Made by a program: the position numbers and the translations under genes. The notes beneath the pieces were generated by a model. The model was not told the origin of the DNA, did no database searches, and worked only from the letters and a program-made list of their open reading frames with translations. A stretch of 64,000 nucleotides of DNA from Clostridia bacterium. Lineage in GTDB: Bacteria > Bacillota > Clostridia > UBA1381 > UMGS1253. Location: the NCBI GenBank assembly GCA_045537695.1, contig JAZSQB010000069.1, positions 4,730 through 68,729 of the forward strand, given 5' to 3'. How positions within the stretch are numbered: position 1 is the stretch's first letter; the number at the start of each line of letters is the position of its first letter. This document shows positions 21,036 through 62,969 of this stretch, piece after piece.

Positions 21036-21110
21036 GCGGGAGTGGCTCAGTGGTAGAGCGTCACCTTGCCAAGGTGAACGTCGCGAGTTCGAATCTCGTC
21101 TTCCGCTCCA
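21036..21110 (+). tRNA. tRNA-Gly (anticodon GCC), CCA encoded
   Basis: GCGGGAG..CTCCCGC-type acceptor stem. Anticodon arm TCACC-TTGCCAA-GGTGA. T-arm GGTTCGAATC-like GAGTTCGAATCTC. 75 nt ending in CCA. Confidence 0.95.
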
Positions 21111-44089: not shown

Positions 44090-44311
44090 ACCAAATTAAA
44101 TATGCCCTGCGGTGTACGTATGTGTACCATTTATTTTACCAACACTTTTAATATGGGATTCTTTGCTCTATGTGCGGATTGCAGGCCTCCCTAAATGGAA
44201 GAGGAAGCGCGAAACACAAGGCGGTTGCCCACCTGCATTTGCAGGTCAAATAAAGGTACAAAACTACGGCATAGCGGGGTTTTTTCATTGAATCAAAATT
44301 GAGGGATGCTT

Positions 44312-54093: not shown

Positions 54094-57000
54094 TTACAGT
54101 ACTTCCGGTGCCGCTAATATACGCATGGTGAAGAAAGATTCTAACAGCATCACCTGTGCCTCATCAAATTCCACATTCGGCAAAAGAGATTCTACGCTCT
54201 CTTCTCCATTATACGATGTAATTTCCACGCCACACTGTGCCCCATCTTTATACAGAACGACGATCAGATAGCCGCTCTTCGCCGCACCGCCTGTAACATT
54301 GGTTGTAAACTTCCAGTTCTCGCCTGCTACTGCATACACCGTCTCCGTTGAAGTCTGCACATTTGGACTCACATATCTATAGCCGATTGCCTCCAGCTCA
54401 TTGATGGAGTATCTTTCCGTATAGCCATCTGTACTGCGTACGCACATACAAATGGCATTGACCGGTTCCGGACAGTCAATTTTAAGCTCATTTACACGCA
54501 CGCCACCCCGCAGTGTACCTTCCTCCAGATTTGCCATTGTGCCGAGTTCAATCCACTCTCCTGCTGCATTTTTGCCCGTAAAGGTTGCTGTTTCCATAAC
54601 CGAGCCAGCTGCATCTCTTTTATCGTAAAGCTTAAAGCTCTCGATAATAGTCAACGCACCAAGTTCCAATGTATAGGTAACATCCGTCAGTGTCCTGCTT
54701 TGGGTTGCACAATATGTGCTTGCACTGCCGTCCGTCATCTCCAGCGCTGGATGGTCTCTATGCAACGCTGTGTTCACAGTCGGGATAACGCCGCCAAGCA
54801 CATTATCTCTTGCAAATTCCGTTGTATTCTCTATGTAGTTGAAGGTATACGTCTTGCCATCGAGTGTAAAGCTGGATGCATCTGCGGTCTTGGTTACCGT
54901 CGCGGCGTCGCTTACGCTTACCTTCGGCTTTGCATTGTTGTACGGAATATAGTAGGTATCTCTGTCTGTTGTAAACGCGGCAAAGTCCTTACCGTCGATA
55001 TACACGCGCGTTTTAAGTTCCTTGGCAATGGCTGCATTGGTTGCTGCGCCGTAATTTACCGCTGTGTCAGAAAATACAATCAAACCGTTTTCCGTATCTG
55101 TATATAGCTGCATACCGAGCGCAGCTGCCAGTTTGTCTGCCGGTGCATATACCACACCGTTTATGGTGGTTAAACCGGACGTTACTGTATTGGTCGCGCC
55201 GTTTCTTGTTACGCTGACGCTACTTTCCGATACTGTAGATTTGGCAAAAATGCTATCTGCCACGAATTTTGCCGGCACCATATACTTACCGCTTTGCAAT
55301 ACCGGTACAATATTTGTATTTGAAGCATCAATGAGCTTCTTTTCTTCCAAAACGAGGGCATTCGGACTATTTTCCATCAGCGCGATAGCATAACCTGCCT
55401 GACGCGCTACGCTGATGGTATTATCCGAAACGCTCCACTCGCCAATCGGTTTTACCTCGCTAAACTGTGTCGGTACGGTTTCGCCCTTCTCAATCGGGAT
55501 AAACTCAACCGCCAGTGTCATTTCGCTCACGTTCGTCATATGAATTGCAAGCTTACGGAAGTTTCTGTAAGTTTCATCCGGCGCAGTAGGACTGGTAGAA
55601 AGTGGAAGCGCATCCATCACGGTAAATACCGCATCCTCCGGACCTGCAATAATTTTTACAAACATTTTTTCGCCGCCGACATTCAAAAGTGCGCCCTTGC
55701 CGTTCTCCACAAGAGATATAACAGCATCGGTATGGGCAAACCACCAAAGCTCGGACGGGAAGTTCATCGTTACCTCATCCTGCAAAATTACGCTGTTTCT
55801 GCCCTTTGTCATAAACATACCGCGCTTTGCGTCTGCAAAGTCTGCGTTGGTTTGCGTCATATCCAGTACGGTATACGCTTCATTTTCCGCTTCGCCGTGA
55901 TCAATAAAACGCGCTACTGCAGTCGTTACCTGGTCAAAGCCTTCACCCGGATTGGCAATCAGCGTATTCTGGCCTTCGGCACGTTCGTTATAATACATAT
56001 ATGTCGGATAATTTGCCGAATAGTTACTTCTGCCGATGGTGCGGATAAAACGCTTACCATTAGCATCAATTACAAATGTACCTAATGACTTAAACATATG
56101 TCCCGTTGCATTGTCACCGCCCTGCATTGCGGCATAAAGTGCATCGTTTGCCGTCCAAGAAGAACGCATGGATGCAATCTGCGCTGTATCAGATGCATTA
56201 AAGGTTTTATCGAGAGGCATACCGCTGTTATAGCTTTCAAAGCTCGGGTTATACCACGGAATTGAAAAATATGGCCTATCAGCATCTGTGCTTGTTTTTG
56301 CTAAAATATGCTTCGCATACCAGCTGTGGAACGGTGTGTTGTTTTTCTGTGCATGCCAAAAAATTACCGATGTTGCATCCAAATCCGACGACGAATCACC
56401 AAAGTCAAATTTTCCCGTCGTACCAGAGCCGTATGCCCAGTAATCCAGCGTGTTTTTCAAAGCCTCATTGTCAAAATACCACTGCGCAGCATCCGGAAGT
56501 GTATATCCCTCTACCACCGCAGACTGCATACTGCTCAGGAACGGCGTAATCGTACGCATTGGATAAGACCAGTACGACACACCCTCCGGGTACGCACCGT
56601 CAGTGGCATACGCATTGGTCGGTTCCTGCATACATTCTAATGCACGATCAATCAAATACTGTGCAAGCTGCGGATACTCATCCGCAACCGCAAGTGCAAG
56701 CAATCCCGCTGCCGAATTGGCTACGGTTGTTCTGTTGGATTTGCCATTTGCAATTTCCACGTTGATCACACCGTCATACGAACGTACAAACTGCCAGAGT
56801 GCCTGCTTCTTTATAATATCCATCAATTCTGTTTTGATTTCAGCCGTCATGGTCGGCGAATTATAGCACCAGTCGTAGAAGCACGCAAAACCAAGCATAA
56901 TTTCAGAAGGAATAATCGGCACATTGTTCGACCAGTCCGGGAAGGTGCTTGCGTTGCGCAATTCTTCAATACCACGCTCTACATATTTTTCATCCTGCTC

Positions 57001-58605
57001 CACAAGATACGCAAAACCGAGCTGCTCTAAACGTTCACCAATGCCGCGCGCAACATCCAAAATGTTTCTGCCGTTGCCGTAATTGTACGTATACAGATCG
57101 GCTGTCAGTGCCTTGTCTGCCGCAGCTTTTAAGCTTGTATACCACGCCTGGCTCTGCGGGTCACTGTTAATTTGTTCTACCAGTGCTGCGCGATCGTTAA
57201 TCATCAAACGCGGATGCTGACGAAGCTTGTTAACTAAGCTATTATCCGTAGGCACGGTATCCGTTGCAACGAGCGACCAGGTAGTACCGGTGATGCCGTA
57301 GTATTTTACGTTTGTAAGCTTCGGCTCTGCATCCTGATACATCACAAAGTTATCCAAAAGAATCGTATCTGACGTTAAAAGCTTACCGTATACATACACC
57401 GAGACTTCGTATGTATCTTCCGGCATAGCCGCTTTAAAGGCTAAATCGCTCACGGCCAGTGTATCGTTTACATAAACATTTAATCGCTGATTCTGAATAT
57501 CAAAGGTTGCTTTAATTTTATTCCAGCTGTCCGCTACGGCACCCTGTGATGTCTCCGAAACGACCGCATCCTCAGAGGTCACCAAAATATTGTTGTCTTT
57601 ATCACGAAGCTCTACATACATTGCAGAGTCAGAAAGCACGGCATAATACTCCGTTGTAAGCTCCTGCACTTCCGTACCGACCGCTAATTTCTTTTGCAGA
57701 TAAGGCGTCTGCGTAATTTTCGTATTATTGGTCATACGGATGATTTTACCGTTATTGCTTGTATCCGCATTCAAAACGGCCTGCGACGCACCGCTGTCTC
57801 TCGTCCAAAGCGCATCTGTACCGCTGCCAATACCATTGCTTGCGTTGAGCGTACAGTCGTAGGTAAACATAAGGTACTTGCCGGTCGGCACGCTCGTTGC
57901 CGGCGCATGCGGGTACGACAAATACGGCTCCATAATCTCTTCCTGTGTGCGGAATGCAATGTTAATATTGTTACATTCTTCAACGTCGACCGGGCTTGTC
58001 GTTGTTACACGTACATCATCTAAATATGCCGCTTTGCCTGCTTCCTGCGAGGAAGCAAAACGCAATTGCAATGTAGAAATATTATTATACCCAATATCGC
58101 CCTCGGCATTTTTCACTTCATTTACATAGGTCACGTATTTTTTCGTCGCAAAATTAAGTTCAACCTTACAATCTGCCCATGTCCCTTCACTGCTTTGGTT
58201 CAAAAACAACTGATTGTTGACGTCCGCAAAACGAAGATATAAGCCCACATTTGCACTCTGCGTCTTTATCTTATAGCTCACTGTCATATTTGTCATGGTT
58301 TCATCAAAATAGAACGTCTTGAGCAGACGCGGAGTGCCAGAAGTGGTCGACGTATTGGAAAAATACGCAACTCTCCCCTGCGCCGTATCCTCCGCAATTT
58401 TGATTGTCGAGGTCCTCGACTCTGTACGTTCGGTCCACATGTTCACCGTGTTTGCCTTCGTCGGGATATTGTCACCTATAGCATCATTCTCAAAATTACT
58501 TTCAAACAGCACAGTCTCTGTTTCTGCTGCCTGCACGCCTATGCCGGCAAACCCAAACGGGCATGCAATACACAAGCACAAAAGCAATGCTAACATTTTT
58601 TTCAT
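54094..58605 (-). CDS. secreted multidomain heparinase II/III-family protein (polysaccharide lyase-like) with jelly-roll, stalk and discoidin-like modules
   Basis: Signal peptide MKKMLALLLCLCIACPFGFAG.. and two N-terminal about 190-aa beta-sandwich modules. Heparinase II/III-like core (..RQHPRLMI.., DGAYPEGVSYWSY, GHMFKSLGTFVIDANGKRF). Copper-amine-oxidase-N-like segment. F5/8-type-C-like segment ending ..INELEAIGY. Confidence 0.75.
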   Translation of the reverse strand: MKKMLALLLCLCIACPFGFAGIGVQAAETETVLFESNFENDAIGDNIPTKANTVNMWTERTESRTSTIKIAEDTAQGRVAYFSNTSTTSGTPRLLKTFYFDETMTNMTVSYKIKTQSANVGLYLRFADVNNQLFLNQSSEGTWADCKVELNFATKKYVTYVNEVKNAEGDIGYNNISTLQLRFASSQEAGKAAYLDDVRVTTTSPVDVEECNNINIAFRTQEEIMEPYLSYPHAPATSVPTGKYLMFTYDCTLNASNGIGSGTDALWTRDSGASQAVLNADTSNNGKIIRMTNNTKITQTPYLQKKLAVGTEVQELTTEYYAVLSDSAMYVELRDKDNNILVTSEDAVVSETSQGAVADSWNKIKATFDIQNQRLNVYVNDTLAVSDLAFKAAMPEDTYEVSVYVYGKLLTSDTILLDNFVMYQDAEPKLTNVKYYGITGTTWSLVATDTVPTDNSLVNKLRQHPRLMINDRAALVEQINSDPQSQAWYTSLKAAADKALTADLYTYNYGNGRNILDVARGIGERLEQLGFAYLVEQDEKYVERGIEELRNASTFPDWSNNVPIIPSEIMLGFACFYDWCYNSPTMTAEIKTELMDIIKKQALWQFVRSYDGVINVEIANGKSNRTTVANSAAGLLALAVADEYPQLAQYLIDRALECMQEPTNAYATDGAYPEGVSYWSYPMRTITPFLSSMQSAVVEGYTLPDAAQWYFDNEALKNTLDYWAYGSGTTGKFDFGDSSSDLDATSVIFWHAQKNNTPFHSWYAKHILAKTSTDADRPYFSIPWYNPSFESYNSGMPLDKTFNASDTAQIASMRSSWTANDALYAAMQGGDNATGHMFKSLGTFVIDANGKRFIRTIGRSNYSANYPTYMYYNERAEGQNTLIANPGEGFDQVTTAVARFIDHGEAENEAYTVLDMTQTNADFADAKRGMFMTKGRNSVILQDEVTMNFPSELWWFAHTDAVISLVENGKGALLNVGGEKMFVKIIAGPEDAVFTVMDALPLSTSPTAPDETYRNFRKLAIHMTNVSEMTLAVEFIPIEKGETVPTQFSEVKPIGEWSVSDNTISVARQAGYAIALMENSPNALVLEEKKLIDASNTNIVPVLQSGKYMVPAKFVADSIFAKSTVSESSVSVTRNGATNTVTSGLTTINGVVYAPADKLAAALGMQLYTDTENGLIVFSDTAVNYGAATNAAIAKELKTRVYIDGKDFAAFTTDRDTYYIPYNNAKPKVSVSDAATVTKTADASSFTLDGKTYTFNYIENTTEFARDNVLGGVIPTVNTALHRDHPALEMTDGSASTYCATQSRTLTDVTYTLELGALTIIESFKLYDKRDAAGSVMETATFTGKNAAGEWIELGTMANLEEGTLRGGVRVNELKIDCPEPVNAICMCVRSTDGYTERYSINELEAIGYRYVSPNVQTSTETVYAVAGENWKFTTNVTGGAAKSGYLIVVLYKDGAQCGVEITSYNGEESVESLLPNVEFDEAQVMLLESFFTMRILAAPEVL

Positions 58606-58764: not shown

Positions 58765-61224
58765 TTATTTCTTCAAACCAAGCATCTCTACGCTTTCATC
58801 GCGCATCTTGTACTTCAAAATCTTACCTGCCGCATTCATCGGGAATTCCTTGACAAACACGAAGTAGCGCGGCACCTTATGGCGCGCAATAGATGCGTTG
58901 CCGTATTCGCGCATTTCGTTTTCGTCCGCTTCCTCGCCTTTATGCAGAATAATCCACGCGCAGCACTCTTCGCCGTAGCGCTCATCCGGCACGCCGACCA
59001 CCTGCACATCCCTTACCTTCGGATGCGTTAGATAAAACTCCTCAATTTCTCTCGGGTAGAGGTTTTCGTCATCGCGGATAATCATATCCTTGAGACGACC
59101 GGTTACCTTATAGTAGCCGTCCGGCGTGCGACAGCAGATATCGCCCGAATGGAGCCAACCGTCCGCATCAATCGTCTGCGCCGTTGCTTCCGGCATTTTG
59201 TAGTAGCCCTTCATAATGTTAAAGCCGCGTGCAACAAATTCGCCGCTCTCGCCATCCGGCAGTTCTTCCCCTGTTTCCGGGTCAATGACCTTACATTCCA
59301 CGCCTGGAAACGGCGAACCCACCGTTTCTACACGGTGGTCAATATCTTCATTGACTTCGCCCATCGTGCAGCCCGGCGAAGCCTCAGTCTGCCCGTATAC
59401 AGAGATAATCTCACGCATATTCATTTCATCTGCCGCACGGCGCATCAAATCCGCAGGACAGTTTGCGCCTGCCATAATACCCGTACGCATATATGAAAAG
59501 TCCGTCTTTGCAAAATCCGCGTGGTTAAACATCGCAATAAACATCGTCGGTACGCCGTTAAAGCACGTAATGTGCTCATCGTTAACGCACGCGAGCGACG
59601 ATTTCGGCGAGAAATACGGCATCGGGCACAGTGTGCCGCCGTGCGTCATCGTCGAGGTCATGGAAAGCACCATACCGAAGCAATGAAACATCGGCACCTG
59701 AATCATCATACGATCCGCCGTGGATAAATCCATACGGTCGCCAATGGTTTTACCGTTGTTGACAATATTTCTGTGCGTCAGCATAACGCCTTTCGGAAAA
59801 CCGGTTGTACCGGAGGTATACTGCATGTTGCACACATCATCCGGCTTTACGAGGGATGCGCGGCGGCGCACTTCTTCCTGTGGAACAAAATTGCTTCGCT
59901 CCAGCATTTTTTCCCAGGTAAGACAGCCGTCCATCTCAAACCCAACCGTTACGACATTGCGCAAGAACGGCAGATTCTTCGAATACAGCGGCTCACCCGG
60001 CTTGAGGCTTTTCAGCTCCGGACAAAGCTCTTCAATAATTTCTTTATAGTTGATATCCTTGCAATCCTCAATCATCACAAGCGTATGCGTATCCGACTGC
60101 TTTAAAAGATACTCAATTTCGTGAATTTTGTAAGCGGTATTCACCGTAACCAGCACCGCACCGATTTTTGTGGTTGCCCAAAAGGTAATAAACCACGCCG
60201 GCACGTTGGTTGCCCAGATGGCAACATGGTCGCCCGCCTTTACGCCGAGCGAAATCAGCGCCGCTGCACACTCATCCACATCGCGGCGGAACTGCGCATA
60301 GGTACGTGTATAATCCAGGGTCGTATATTTAAATGCATACTGGTCCGGATACTTTTCCACCATTTTATCGAGCACATCCGAAAAAGTTGCCTCAATGACA
60401 TCGTACTTTTTCCAGACAAAGGTGCCCGTCTTATCGCGATTATAATAGGTGCGGTCGTATTCCTTCTTCGTGCGCGACAGATTTGCAATGTAGTTTGCAA
60501 AATGCGTCAGCACAATATCCGCATCCTGAATTTCTTCATTCCATGCCACGCAGATATAGCCATCGAAATTGAGCGAAGACAGCGCGTTGATTACGTTGGT
60601 CACCGGCAATTCACCCTCGCCAATGAGCACCTTTTTGCCGTCCTTCATATCGCCAAGGCGCACATATTTAATGTATGCACCCAAGGTCTTGATGGTTGTA
60701 TCCGCACTTTCACCGGCGTTAAAATACGTTTCTCTCGTATTCCAGGCTACGCCGATGGCTGCCGAAGAAAAGAAATTGATTAAATCAATCACGTTCTCCG
60801 TTTCCGCAAGATAGCCTGCCGTTTCAAATAAAATCTGCACATCCGCAGCTTCCGCACGACGAATTGCCGCCATCAGCTTCGAGGCGAGCACTGCCGTGTC
60901 CGTTTTTTCCATAATGCGCACAATCACGCGCTCCACGCCGGCATTTCTTGCCATATCCACATATTTTACAAGCGCTTCTTCCGTCGCCTGCTCACTCTCT
61001 ACGGCATACGGATAGCGCAGTGCGGAAACCGCCAAGCCGCGGTTAAATAGCTTGCGCTTTGCGTCCGCATTGCGGTCACTTCTTAAAATACTATCGTAAT
61101 GCTGTTTTCTCTCTGCAACTGCATCATAGATTTCAAAACCGGCATAGCCATAGTCATAGGCGTAACGGCACGTATCCAGAAAGGAAGGTCTGTTTACGTT
61201 TTTCGTTGAAAATATCAGCTTCAT
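58765..61224 (-). CDS. fusion protein: xylose-isomerase-like TIM barrel (sugar phosphate isomerase/epimerase family) + AMP-forming acyl-CoA synthetase
   Basis: aa 1 to about 245 are TIM-barrel-like (..GFEIYD.., ..ILFETAG.., ..YVRLGD..). aa about 265-819 are the adenylate-forming enzyme (YTSGTTGFPKGVMLTHRN, VYGQTEASP, SGDICCRTPDGYYKVTGRLKD). Confidence 0.8.
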   Translation of the reverse strand: MKLIFSTKNVNRPSFLDTCRYAYDYGYAGFEIYDAVAERKQHYDSILRSDRNADAKRKLFNRGLAVSALRYPYAVESEQATEEALVKYVDMARNAGVERVIVRIMEKTDTAVLASKLMAAIRRAEAADVQILFETAGYLAETENVIDLINFFSSAAIGVAWNTRETYFNAGESADTTIKTLGAYIKYVRLGDMKDGKKVLIGEGELPVTNVINALSSLNFDGYICVAWNEEIQDADIVLTHFANYIANLSRTKKEYDRTYYNRDKTGTFVWKKYDVIEATFSDVLDKMVEKYPDQYAFKYTTLDYTRTYAQFRRDVDECAAALISLGVKAGDHVAIWATNVPAWFITFWATTKIGAVLVTVNTAYKIHEIEYLLKQSDTHTLVMIEDCKDINYKEIIEELCPELKSLKPGEPLYSKNLPFLRNVVTVGFEMDGCLTWEKMLERSNFVPQEEVRRRASLVKPDDVCNMQYTSGTTGFPKGVMLTHRNIVNNGKTIGDRMDLSTADRMMIQVPMFHCFGMVLSMTSTMTHGGTLCPMPYFSPKSSLACVNDEHITCFNGVPTMFIAMFNHADFAKTDFSYMRTGIMAGANCPADLMRRAADEMNMREIISVYGQTEASPGCTMGEVNEDIDHRVETVGSPFPGVECKVIDPETGEELPDGESGEFVARGFNIMKGYYKMPEATAQTIDADGWLHSGDICCRTPDGYYKVTGRLKDMIIRDDENLYPREIEEFYLTHPKVRDVQVVGVPDERYGEECCAWIILHKGEEADENEMREYGNASIARHKVPRYFVFVKEFPMNAAGKILKYKMRDESVEMLGLKK

Positions 61225-61226
61225 CC

Positions 61227-62615
61227 TTACGCCTCCTCAAATACAATCTTGTTGAGCGCATTGATATAGGCTCTGATACTGGCAGCCACGATGTCTGTCG
61301 AGCTACCGTTGCCGGAATAAAGCTTGCCACCCACGCGCAGCTTCACAAGCGCAGAACCGAGCGCCTCTTTACCGTCGGTCACGGACTGAATCTGGAAATC
61401 ATCCAGCTCATAGTGATAGCCGATGCTCTGCTCAATCGCACGGAATACCGAGTCAATCGGACCGTCCCCCGTGCTGACACCACACAGAATTTCATCGCCG
61501 CAACGCAATGTCACCTGCGACATCGCCGTGGTTAAATTGCCGCAGCTGGTCGAATAGCTCTCAAAATGATAGGTCGACGGTGCCTGCATCGCTGTACTTG
61601 CAATCAAGGCTTCAAACTCTTTTGCGCCCACGGTGCCCTTCTTTTCGCAAACCTGCATCAGGGCTTTATGCACCTTGCCGTTATCTTCATCGGACAAATC
61701 ATAACCGAGCACACCGGCAGCATGTGCCACATCGGAAAGTGTGCTGTCCTCATCGAGTAAAATCTTCTTCTTTTCGCTGACAACACTCACGCTGTCATAG
61801 CCCTCGTGCTGAATTTTTGTAAGCAAATCCGCAATACTTGCGTGGATTTTTGTATTGACCAAAGATACGCTTGCGCCAACATCTTCCCCGCGCGCAGAAA
61901 CTGCGTTGGAAAGCTCGCCCATCGAGAGCACATCATCGCCAACCATTGCGCACTTAAGACCGTCCGCACCGGCGCCAACTGCCGAAAATGCCGCAGCCAC
62001 TGCCATACCGATGTGCGTGGAAACCTGCACATAAACCGGTACATCCACTTCTTTTTTAAGCGCTTCTACCAGGGTTGCAATTTCCGCCGGCAACGATACG
62101 CCAGCATCATCGCAAACCGTAACCAAGGTCGCACCGTTCTCTACTGCCATTTTTGCTGCCTGCACAAGGAATTCCAAATCTGCACGTGTTGCATCCAATG
62201 CCGCAAATTCCACATCTGCGCAAAGCGCTTTCGCCGCCTGCGTCAGTTCCGCAATTTTGGCAAGCATTTTATCGGACTTAACGTGGTAGGTATACTCCAT
62301 CTGTACCGTCGAGGTCGGCACTTCCACCTGCAGTCTCGGCTTTGCCGCTTCGCGGATGCATTCCCATGCGTTGCTCACTTCTGCCGCCGAAAAACCGACC
62401 GGCAAAGCCAGCACACTGTTTTTCACATTCGCCGCAATCGTTTTATATATAATGGTGTCTTCGCGCACATTCTTAAGCGGTGCAAGCTCAATGGCATCCA
62501 CGCCCAAGCCGTCTGCGCACGCTGCAATCGCCGTTTTTTCGCGAAACAAAAGCGAAACCTCGCGATCCTGCGCCAGCTTTTTTAATGTGATATCGGTTAC
62601 ATTGATTTTTTTCAT
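61227..62615 (-). CDS. LeuA-like protein (HMGL-like barrel with degenerate catalytic motifs + LeuA allosteric/dimerisation domain)
   Basis: Starts MKKINVTDITLKKLAQD (canonical DTTLRDGEQ lost). STH replaces the HxH metal site. C-terminal ..GDGPIDSVFRAIEQ..LVKLRVGGKLYSGNGSSTDIVAASIRAYINALN is the LeuA_dimer type. The upstream 80 codons of the track ORF overlap the T-box and are rejected. Confidence 0.75.
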   Translation of the reverse strand: MKKINVTDITLKKLAQDREVSLLFREKTAIAACADGLGVDAIELAPLKNVREDTIIYKTIAANVKNSVLALPVGFSAAEVSNAWECIREAAKPRLQVEVPTSTVQMEYTYHVKSDKMLAKIAELTQAAKALCADVEFAALDATRADLEFLVQAAKMAVENGATLVTVCDDAGVSLPAEIATLVEALKKEVDVPVYVQVSTHIGMAVAAAFSAVGAGADGLKCAMVGDDVLSMGELSNAVSARGEDVGASVSLVNTKIHASIADLLTKIQHEGYDSVSVVSEKKKILLDEDSTLSDVAHAAGVLGYDLSDEDNGKVHKALMQVCEKKGTVGAKEFEALIASTAMQAPSTYHFESYSTSCGNLTTAMSQVTLRCGDEILCGVSTGDGPIDSVFRAIEQSIGYHYELDDFQIQSVTDGKEALGSALVKLRVGGKLYSGNGSSTDIVAASIRAYINALNKIVFEEA

Positions 62616-62644: not shown

Positions 62645-62912
62645 GCAAAAAAAATGCCTTCGTCTCTTTGATTTTTGAAAGAGACGAAAGCGTCAAATTC
62701 TCACTTAACCTTCCGCGGTACCACTCTTCTTCATCCAACGGATGCCCTTTCGATGCAAACACATCTTGACTCTGTAACGGGAGTGCCCGTCTGCCCTTAC
62801 GCACCATAGGTTTCACGGCAGCTGCTCCGCGGTGAGTTCTGCAAATCTTTCCCAATGCCTCGCAGCAACCGGCATCTCTCTCCAGGCGAAAGGATTCTGC
62901 GTACTATTCCGC
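62645..62912 (-). promoter_or_regulatory. T-box riboswitch leader, specifier CUC (Leu)
   Basis: On the minus strand: AGAGAG box, then the specifier loop GAA-CUC-A (codon at 62836-62834). T-box sequence GUGGUACCGCG (complement of 62713-62725), with UGGU bulge matching an ACCA tRNA end. Terminator CUUUCGUCUCUUU..AAAGAGACGAAGG plus U8 (62645-62692). Confidence 0.85.
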
Positions 62913-62940
62913 ATCAATGCATTTTTATAACATTAGATTT

Positions 62941-62969
62941 AATATAGCATATTTCCCGCACGTTGTCAA
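62941..62969 (-). promoter_or_regulatory. sigma-70-type promoter of the T-box operon
   Basis: Minus strand TTGACA (62969-62964), 17 nt, TATATT (62946-62941). Confidence 0.65.

Follow-up and report, generated by a model that had tools for sequence, protein, structure and literature searches.

A LeuA-like protein without catalytic residues is paired with an acyl-CoA ligase behind a leucine T-box in Clostridia

We looked at a 64,000-nucleotide stretch of a Clostridia bacterium genome (assembly GCA_045537695.1, contig JAZSQB010000069.1, positions 4,730 to 68,729), called the window below, and in particular at a gene of its minus strand whose product resembles the 2-isopropylmalate synthase LeuA. 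That this LeuA-like protein is a catalytically dead paralogue of 2-isopropylmalate synthase is well supported by its sequence and those of its relatives. Together with the gene of an AMP-forming acyl-CoA ligase, the LeuA-like gene apparently forms a two-gene operon, in which it comes first. We propose, as a reading that we find evenly poised, that this is a leucine-starvation-induced isovalerate-to-leucine operon in which the dead LeuA would be the leucine-sensing partner of the ligase. The gene and the parts of its product are as follows.

61227..62615, minus strand: LeuA-like pseudoenzyme gene, 462 amino acids and a stop codon
61866..62615, minus strand: residues 1-250, HMGL-like (beta/alpha)8 barrel without the metal ligands or the catalytic Arg, Glu and Thr (PF00682, AlphaFold2, Foldseek, alignments)
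61716..61865, minus strand: residues 251-300, poorly conserved linker in place of subdomain I (alignment; identity 17%)
61230..61715, minus strand: residues 301-462, subdomain II and LeuA_dimer regulatory (amino-acid-binding) domain (PF08502, NCBIfam, alignment)

To compare the protein with true LeuA enzymes, the register was set by phmmer alignments to the solved LeuA/MAMS barrels 3ewb, 3rmj, 3eeg and 6e1j, and a MAFFT alignment with E. coli LeuA, in which nine family members were included, agreed with it. A first-pass annotation, made from the letters of the window, had reported that the canonical DTTLRDGEQ is replaced by DITLKKLAQ, and had left room for a mis-registration of the Arg, Asp and His positions. 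Both alignments place DITLKKLAQ at residues 8-16 and show that the register was correct. In BjMAMS numbering, the invariant DRE-TIM arginine Arg89 is replaced by K12, the metal ligand Asp90 by K13, Glu227 by L140 (xEDA reads ALDA) and Thr257 by D170 (PDTVG reads CDDAG), and the HxH pair His288/His290 has become Q197-V-S199. The GERAGN motif of LeuA is also replaced, and the altered string noticed in the former HxH...GERxGN region, QVSTHIGMAVAAAFSAVGAGADGLKCAMVGDDVLSMG, was found at residues 197-233. The canonical Gln of RDGEQ is retained as Q16 in the window protein and is variable across the family. The claim that the catalytic motifs are lost and the regulatory domain is intact was thus borne out, and one loss can be added to it: subdomain I is missing too, since a segment of about 30 residues (HxSGIHQDG), which carries the general-base His388 and the stacking Tyr399, has been deleted from the window protein and from each of the nine family members in the alignment with E. 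coli LeuA.

In BjMAMS2A, the substitutions R89K/A/Q, E227A/D, T257A, Q93A and H388A/D/E each gave an inactive enzyme (PMC11532901). Because residues essential in that enzyme are substituted or deleted here, the LeuA-like protein, judged by its alignment, cannot work as the known isopropylmalate synthases do. The loss is shared by the family: R-D-G-E-Q, HxH and NGxGERxGN are absent from all of the about 105 full-length representatives in our motif table, and the canonical LeuAs recovered by the same representative search retain DTTLRDGEQ and HCHNDLG. Every catalytic feature by which membership was tested is lacking, and on these grounds the protein should not be filed as an isopropylmalate synthase. 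The pseudoenzyme reading of the first-pass annotation therefore stands as far as isopropylmalate synthase chemistry is concerned, the residues being lost across a deep and conserved family; its alternative, a barrel put to some other chemistry, is still live and is weighed below.

The start of the gene was placed at the methionine of MKKIN, which is the start in 119 close relatives. A 542-amino-acid open reading frame (ORF) from the mechanical list, reaching upstream to 62855, was rejected since its extension overlaps the T-box leader. The Pfam matches to HMGL-like (PF00682, 2.2e-28, residues 4-226) and to LeuA_dimer (PF08502, 2.8e-29, residues 331-457, covering positions 4-130 of the 131 of the model) are far beyond chance. 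Every NCBIfam LeuA equivalog matches the protein and none reaches its cut-off, with 255 bits against 532 for the best (NF002086) and 168-228 bits against 517-748 for the others; the C-terminal part is matched by LeuA model positions 316-504. An AlphaFold2 model of the protein, for which 62 close homologues were used, has pLDDT values mostly above 90 in the barrel (residues 1-250) and below 50 in residues 255-281 of the linker. The modelled barrel superposes on LeuA barrels (Foldseek against 3ewb: TMt 0.91, root-mean-square deviation 1.9 A).

Relatives of the protein are numerous. A word-indexed search gave more than 120 clusters at 71-84% identity, all of about 462 amino acids and all from metagenome-assembled genomes (MAGs) of Oscillospiraceae/'Ruminococcaceae', where any name given is 'hypothetical protein'. 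In a species-representative set, relatives are encoded in at least 322 species genomes. The 80 loci listed all come from MAGs, assigned to Clostridia, Eubacteriales, Oscillospiraceae, Acutalibacteraceae, Ruminococcus, Ructibacterium or Candidatus Aphodoplasma. An exhaustive representative search added about 115 further clusters of proteins of about 460 amino acids at 34-51% identity, ranking ahead of the ordinary LeuAs of about 505 residues. According to the motif table, these members of about 460 residues share P-[VT]-S-x-V-Q-M-E, VEFxAxDA and CDxAG, and the close relatives mostly read DITLKKLSQ at the DTTLRDGEQ position. The LeuA-like gene is thus not decaying, and it belongs to a large, deep Clostridia family under purifying selection.

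Conservation was compared region by region as the mean pairwise identity over 57 diverse members. It was 33% in the barrel, 17% in the linker, 48.5% in subdomain II and 58.6% in the regulatory domain, the highest of the four. LeuA binds leucine in its C-terminal regulatory domain (PMC9860122), and it is therefore on this leucine-binding part that selection is concentrated. At the divergences within the family, synonymous sites are saturated. Five proteins with LeuA_dimer C-termini (P0239, P0247, P0250, P0253, P0256) carry a different and unrelated N-terminus each (7TMR-HDED, MBOAT, MFS, TGT, response regulator). They are probably chimeric metagenome calls and were excluded as evidence, genuine shuffling of a sensor module being the other possibility.

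The regulatory part of the window protein contains GDGPID, G420 and GxGSSTDI..AYINALNK within residues 301-462, and the LeuA_dimer-type strings picked out from the letters, GDGPIDSVFRAIEQ (383-396) and LVKLRVGGKLYSGNGSSTDIVAASIRAYINALN (423-455), both lie in it and are covered by the PF08502 match. Its C-terminal residues, about 180 in number, are 32-35% identical to canonical LeuA C-termini, nearly without gaps. Across the family, the GxGPxD and GxGxSTD motifs are invariant and each precedes one of the two helices of the domain; G383, G385, P386, D388, G435, G437, T440 and D441 vary little or not at all. In MtuIPMS, the leucine carboxylate is located between two helix N-termini (PMC11057210). 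The invariant G420 aligns with G462 of E. coli LeuA, for which G462D is a feedback-resistant allele (PMC6345581), and the isolated LeuA_dimer domain of CimA works as an isoleucine sensor (PMC13381585). A phmmer search of the PDB with the C-terminal 177 amino acids matched no LeuA or CimA regulatory domain; the family profile gave a weak match to 3f6g over 49 residues. These features suggest that the LeuA-like protein may bind leucine. A link to leucine had been guessed from the domain alone, and it gains independent support from the T-box specifier described below and from the top conservation of the regulatory domain, G420 included; the T-box itself, the isovalerate-to-leucine context and the extent of the family are additions to that first-pass annotation.

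The gene that follows starts two bases downstream of the LeuA-like gene, and its features are these.

58765..61224, minus strand: partner gene, 819 amino acids, xylose-isomerase-like TIM domain and ANL (AMP-forming) acyl-CoA ligase (Pfam, NCBIfam)
60430..61224, minus strand: TIM (AP_endonuc_2) domain, residues 1-265, usual metal ligands substituted in the clade of the window (alignment)
58768..60429, minus strand: ANL ligase domain, residues 266-819, motifs A3 SGTTGFPKG, A5 YGQTE, A7 SGD and A8 GRLKD intact
59068..59073, minus strand: codons GAT GAC, Asp718-Asp719, Gly-Gly in all 105 relatives (A8 GRLKDMIIR-GG-ENLYP)

Its Pfam matches are AP_endonuc_2 (3.9e-14), AMP-binding PF00501 (2.4e-96) and AMP-binding_C PF13193 (4.8e-17), and NF009233 of NCBIfam matches with 670 bits. 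We then asked how constant the pair is, counting from the LeuA-like genes to the ligase in loci with enough flank. All 67 close loci and all 60 distant ones have the ligase gene directly after the LeuA-like gene, with an intergenic gap of 2-10 nucleotides in most loci, and none of ten canonical leuA loci from the same scan has it after leuA. The first-pass annotation had suggested checking whether orthologues always precede the TIM::ligase fusion; in all of these loci they do. The ANL domain is 89-97% identical among species whose LeuA-like proteins are 68-84% identical (66-85% for the adjacent LeuA-like and TIM sequences), and 64-75% identical where the LeuA-like proteins are at 35-50% (26-50% for the adjacent sequences). 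The constraint on this domain is extraordinary across the window and the related loci L001-L163. The proteins of solved structure closest to the TIM domain are MJ1311, Art22 and AsbF. In distant lineages, this domain has the metal-ligand pattern ET..WD..H..HxHLKD..LEW; the window reads ET..WN..R..YVRLGD..VAWN, and its clade has WN, R/E, Y/RLGD and VAWN at these positions, which suggests that the TIM domain of this clade has degenerated.

Upstream of the LeuA-like gene, the window carries the following leader.

62941..62969, minus strand: putative sigma-70-type promoter, TTGACA (62969-62964), 17-nucleotide spacer, TATATT (62946-62941), read by eye
62677..62926, minus strand: T-box leader immediately before the LeuA-like gene (RF00230 of Rfam: 118.9 bits, gathering score 93, E 1e-25, full model 1-219)
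62834..62836, minus strand: specifier codon CUC (Leu), Stem I specifier loop GAA-CUC-A-CC (cmscan alignment to the T-box consensus)
62714..62725, minus strand: T-box core AGUGGUACCGCG, antiterminator bulge pairing with the tRNA acceptor end (aligned to RF00230 GGUGGUACCGCG)
62647..62686, minus strand: intrinsic terminator, hairpin CGUCUCUUU / AAAGAGACG and then a U8 run, read from the sequence

The 5' arm of the terminator is the 3' end of the RF00230 match. The same leader was looked for in the close set, made up of the window and 81 close loci, thus 82 upstream regions. A T-box core was present in 68 of them, with the specifier CUC in 64, CUG in one and CCC in two, one being not reliably read. 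The two CCC (Pro) specifiers, in L049 and L056, may be single-base variants or MAG sequencing errors. Ten regions have no T-box and carry instead a conserved leader ORF of about 32 codons (M..ALF.AYILLINAIIILL..NSAICRV) with an ILLINAIIILL run, followed by a terminator made of a conserved hairpin, GCCTGCGGCAAACGGTGCTGCAGGC, and a T run. This ORF (L002 6798-6896, with equivalents in L003, L010-L013, L022, L029, L031 and L039) looks like an Ile/Leu leader-peptide attenuator substituting for the T-box. The remaining four regions were too short to judge, and otherwise none of the 82 had neither a T-box nor the leader ORF. An nhmmer profile of the close leaders missed most distant T-boxes, and Rfam cmscan was used for these instead. 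A T-box at the gathering score lies directly upstream in 18 of the 35 distant loci scanned, with a CUC or CUG specifier in all 18; the other distant loci may have T-boxes below 93 bits or other leaders. Given the leucine specifiers and the Ile/Leu leader ORFs, the operon is therefore, in the lineages examined, apparently wired to leucine (or Leu/Ile) starvation.

The neighbourhood of the pair points to a pathway. A branched-chain aminotransferase (BCAT) gene adjoins it in 26 loci of close and distant lineages, and about 19 of these 26 also have a gene for a ParA-like P-loop protein and the alpha, beta and gamma genes of a 2-oxoacid:ferredoxin oxidoreductase (OFOR), two conserved gene orders recurring. 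Loci with the leader ORF and enough flank have the BCAT gene, or BCAT and OFOR genes, downstream in the same direction. No leuBCD genes were found beside the LeuA-like gene in any of about 150 loci, and no leuBCD, ilvE or OFOR genes among the window ORFs scanned with Pfam. The specifier and these neighbours, rather than the sequence of the ligase, suggest isovalerate as its probable substrate. The ParA/NUBPL-like protein, of 230 amino acids, is encoded between the aminotransferase and oxidoreductase genes (L002 11918-12610 and 18 other loci) and might serve the OFOR as an accessory factor or in Fe-S maturation.

Two further ligase sets stand next to the leucine operon in some lineages.

L064 9924-12544, also L065 and L088: T-box (Ile) and HTH_3-cupin-AMP-binding ligase
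L036 3415-5596: T-box (UUC, Phe), PaaK-type phenylacetate-CoA ligase (457 amino acids) and a 143-amino-acid ACT protein

The HTH_3-cupin::AMP-binding ligase, of 773 amino acids, adjoins the leucine operon in about 35 loci and lies behind its own T-box, with the specifier AUC (Ile) in the three leaders read. We regard it as a candidate 2-methylbutyrate-CoA ligase to which a sensor or regulator domain has been fused. In L036, the phenylalanine operon is directly upstream of the leucine operon, and three tRNA-sensing acid-CoA ligase operons stand side by side. Labelling of rumen bacteria showed that they make leucine from isovalerate, isoleucine from 2-methylbutyrate and phenylalanine from phenylacetate, the acid being carboxylated and then aminated (Allison 1962/1966 and co-workers, cited in PMC7356843). 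The three ligase sets would correspond to the leucine, isoleucine and phenylalanine carboxylation routes of these bacteria.

The isovalerate reading that we propose would then run as follows. Uncharged tRNA-Leu would turn on transcription through the T-box leader with its CUC specifier. The ligase would convert isovalerate into isovaleryl-CoA, which the 2-oxoacid:ferredoxin oxidoreductase would reductively carboxylate to 2-oxoisocaproate, and the branched-chain aminotransferase would make leucine from it, as in Allison's isovalerate-carboxylation route. The dead LeuA would dimerise through its barrel and regulatory domains, bind leucine in the retained LeuA_dimer domain and act as an allosteric (feedback) partner of the ligase, placing the ATP-consuming first step under end-product control. 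The operon would thus have two layers of control, the T-box on transcription and the dead LeuA responding to the end product. A sensor role is suggested because conservation in the family centres on the ligand-binding domain and the coupling to the ligase is strict, and because the neighbours offer parallels (the Phe ligase with its ACT protein, the Ile ligase fused to a cupin) and LeuA_dimer is autonomous in CimA. Physical association of the LeuA-like protein with the ligase, and inhibition of the ligase by it, are what we infer from this arrangement.

Several observations weigh against this proposal. The AlphaFold2 model has pLDDT values below 50 over residues 343-462, so the pocket of the regulatory domain could not be inspected. 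When the 64-kb window itself was searched by tblastn with L002 proteins (BCAT, ParA-like, OFOR) as queries, none of the corresponding genes turned up. The Gly-Gly to Asp-Asp change, two adjacent second-position G-to-A changes, occurs in the window ligase alone. The loop after A8 matters for the thioester-forming conformation of ANL enzymes, and this copy of the ligase may be impaired or the bases may be a sequence error. In most lineages the metal ligands of the TIM domain are kept, and an extra catalytic step that the model does not include may exist. Finally, D8, S102, E107, K113, E136, D141 and D169 are near-invariant barrel residues near the former active site, and may point to a ligand site that was kept, not just to a scaffold.

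These residues bear on the strongest competitor, namely that the barrel was recruited to a new ligand or chemistry in the same pathway (isovaleryl-CoA, isovaleryl-AMP or 2-oxoisocaproate), which we consider conceivable but on the whole unlikely. The protein could then be a metal-independent enzyme, a carrier or a ligase-oxidoreductase channel, possibly together with the TIM domain of the ligase. Where canonical LeuA has ATSxxH, the family has a near-invariant motif of its own, P-[VT]-S-x-V-Q-M-E-Y...K; D8, E136, D141 and D169 are invariant on the C-terminal face of a barrel whose fold, in a model of high confidence, appears fully kept; and the apparently competent metal site of the fused TIM domain in most lineages hints at a further reaction. 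However, conservation is lower in the barrel than in the regulatory domain (33% and 58.6%), family members differ freely at the positions once used for metal and substrate, ordinary LeuA shares several of the conserved barrel residues, which may thus be structural, and the clade of the window has lost the TIM metal ligands and still keeps the pair. A purely structural partner, acting like a scaffold or chaperone in the folding, stability or oligomerisation of the TIM::ligase, sensing no amino acid and with leucine control coming from the T-box alone, seems improbable to us. It would fit the strict gene order and the near-abutting genes, and the fold suits assemblies, canonical LeuA being a domain-swapped dimer (PMC9860122), but it leaves unexplained why GxGPxD, G420 and GxGxSTD are invariant while the rest drifts.

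That the protein is an active isopropylmalate (or related 2-oxoacid/acetyl-CoA) synthase with non-canonical residues is very hard to believe, even though its homology to LeuA spans both domains and a leucine T-box would suit a leuA gene as well. The three metal ligands, the DRE-TIM Arg, Glu227, Thr257 and the whole His388/Tyr399 segment are gone, single substitutions at equivalent sites kill MAMS activity (PMC11532901), the scores are far under every LeuA equivalog cut-off, and the gene is followed by a ligase instead of leuBCD in the loci surveyed. A decaying pseudogene, or an artefact of annotation or assembly, can be practically dismissed: the lost catalytic motifs and the database name 'hypothetical protein' would agree with it, but the ORF of about 460 amino acids is intact in hundreds of species at 34-84% identity, and conservation extends to the motif that took the place of the catalytic one (most close relatives read DITLKKLSQ), to the synteny and to the leader.

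The LeuA-like protein can be compared with several known systems. Like canonical LeuA, it has an HMGL-like barrel, subdomain II and LeuA_dimer in this order, is 25-31% identical to the E. coli enzyme and others, and has its expression tied to leucine availability. Unlike LeuA, it has no metal ligands, catalytic Arg/Glu/Thr or subdomain I, has about 45 residues fewer, reaches less than half of the NCBIfam cut-off scores, and its gene is always found before the TIM::acyl-CoA ligase and never beside leuBCD. In its logic, this LeuA-derived pseudoenzyme resembles, by analogy, the HisZ and IlvN/ACT arrangements. HisZ is a dead histidyl-tRNA synthetase paralogue that serves as the histidine-sensing regulatory subunit of the ATP phosphoribosyltransferase HisG(S). 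Both would be paralogues of an enzyme for the same amino acid that lost catalysis, kept ligand binding and took over end-product control of the first committed enzyme of a pathway, as demonstrated for the complex and allostery of HisZ and proposed for the LeuA-like protein; the folds differ, and the partner here is an ANL ligase. IlvN and IlvH are small regulatory subunits of acetohydroxyacid synthase, IlvN serving IlvB, and stand-alone ACT proteins are similar. They too are separate polypeptides with an amino-acid-binding fold for a branched-chain pathway enzyme, and the PaaK-type ligase of L036 is likewise paired with its ACT protein. In contrast, the sensor fold of the LeuA-like protein is LeuA_dimer (beta-beta-beta-alpha, twice) and not ACT, and a whole dead catalytic barrel is retained.

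With CimA, the protein shares the LeuA_dimer ('LA') domain, an autonomous recognition module used as an isoleucine biosensor (PMC13381585). CimA is however an active enzyme that senses isoleucine, whereas the C-terminus of the LeuA-like protein matches LeuA models and not CimA models, and its gene is under leucine T-box control. As to the Allison pathway, the likeness lies in the hosts (Oscillospiraceae and other Clostridia of rumen, gut and faeces), in the predicted acid activation, ferredoxin-dependent reductive carboxylation and transamination, and in the parallel isoleucine and phenylalanine routes. That pathway is known physiologically, while the gene assignment is what we propose here. 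In the literature searched, whose coverage was incomplete so that a prior description is possible, we found no LeuA-derived pseudoenzyme and nothing that connects the isovalerate route with these ligase genes, with T-box control or with a partner derived from LeuA.

Taken further, these loci could reflect a modular 'reverse-fermentation' amino-acid salvage in gut and rumen Clostridia to which genes had not been assigned before, with separate T-box ligase operons for isovalerate (Leu), 2-methylbutyrate (Ile) and phenylacetate (Phe), each with its own sensor (dead LeuA, cupin, ACT). The LeuA-derived protein would then be the first isopropylmalate synthase turned into a trans-acting, leucine-responsive regulatory subunit serving an unrelated enzyme, and the operon would hold the missing genes of the Allison pathway; we offer this wider picture tentatively and think it somewhat doubtful. 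Branched-chain fatty acids, abundant metabolites of the gut, serve ruminococci as growth factors. That they are converted into leucine, isoleucine and phenylalanine has been known from physiology since the 1960s; the activation step and its regulation have had no genes assigned to them. The locus offers testable candidates, namely a leucine T-box, a dedicated ligase and a LeuA-derived sensor. If the proposal is true, a feedback-sensing domain outlived its own enzyme and was re-used in trans to govern the opening step of another route leading to the same amino acid, which would be a clean example of the exaptation of a regulatory module. A 'LeuA/HMGL-like' annotation in Clostridia would then be no proof of an isopropylmalate pathway, and biosensor design could draw on the protein as a natural, stand-alone module that binds leucine.

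Elsewhere in the window, the region from about 26 to 52 kb carries housekeeping and sporulation genes, among them those for a MinD-like ATPase, PBP2, MreC, Maf, a U32 peptidase and a class-V aminotransferase, as well as spoIIIAA, spoIIIAE, a CCA-adding enzyme and a type III glutamine synthetase. This is the context of a spore-forming Clostridium-class chromosome. A tRNA gene lies at 21036-21107 (plus strand) and a 6S RNA at 44101-44284 (plus strand, 86.1 bits). Immediately downstream of the ligase gene, in the window only and not in related loci, a protein of 1503 amino acids with a signal-like N-terminus is encoded at 54094-58605 (minus strand), with no Pfam match at E <= 0.001.

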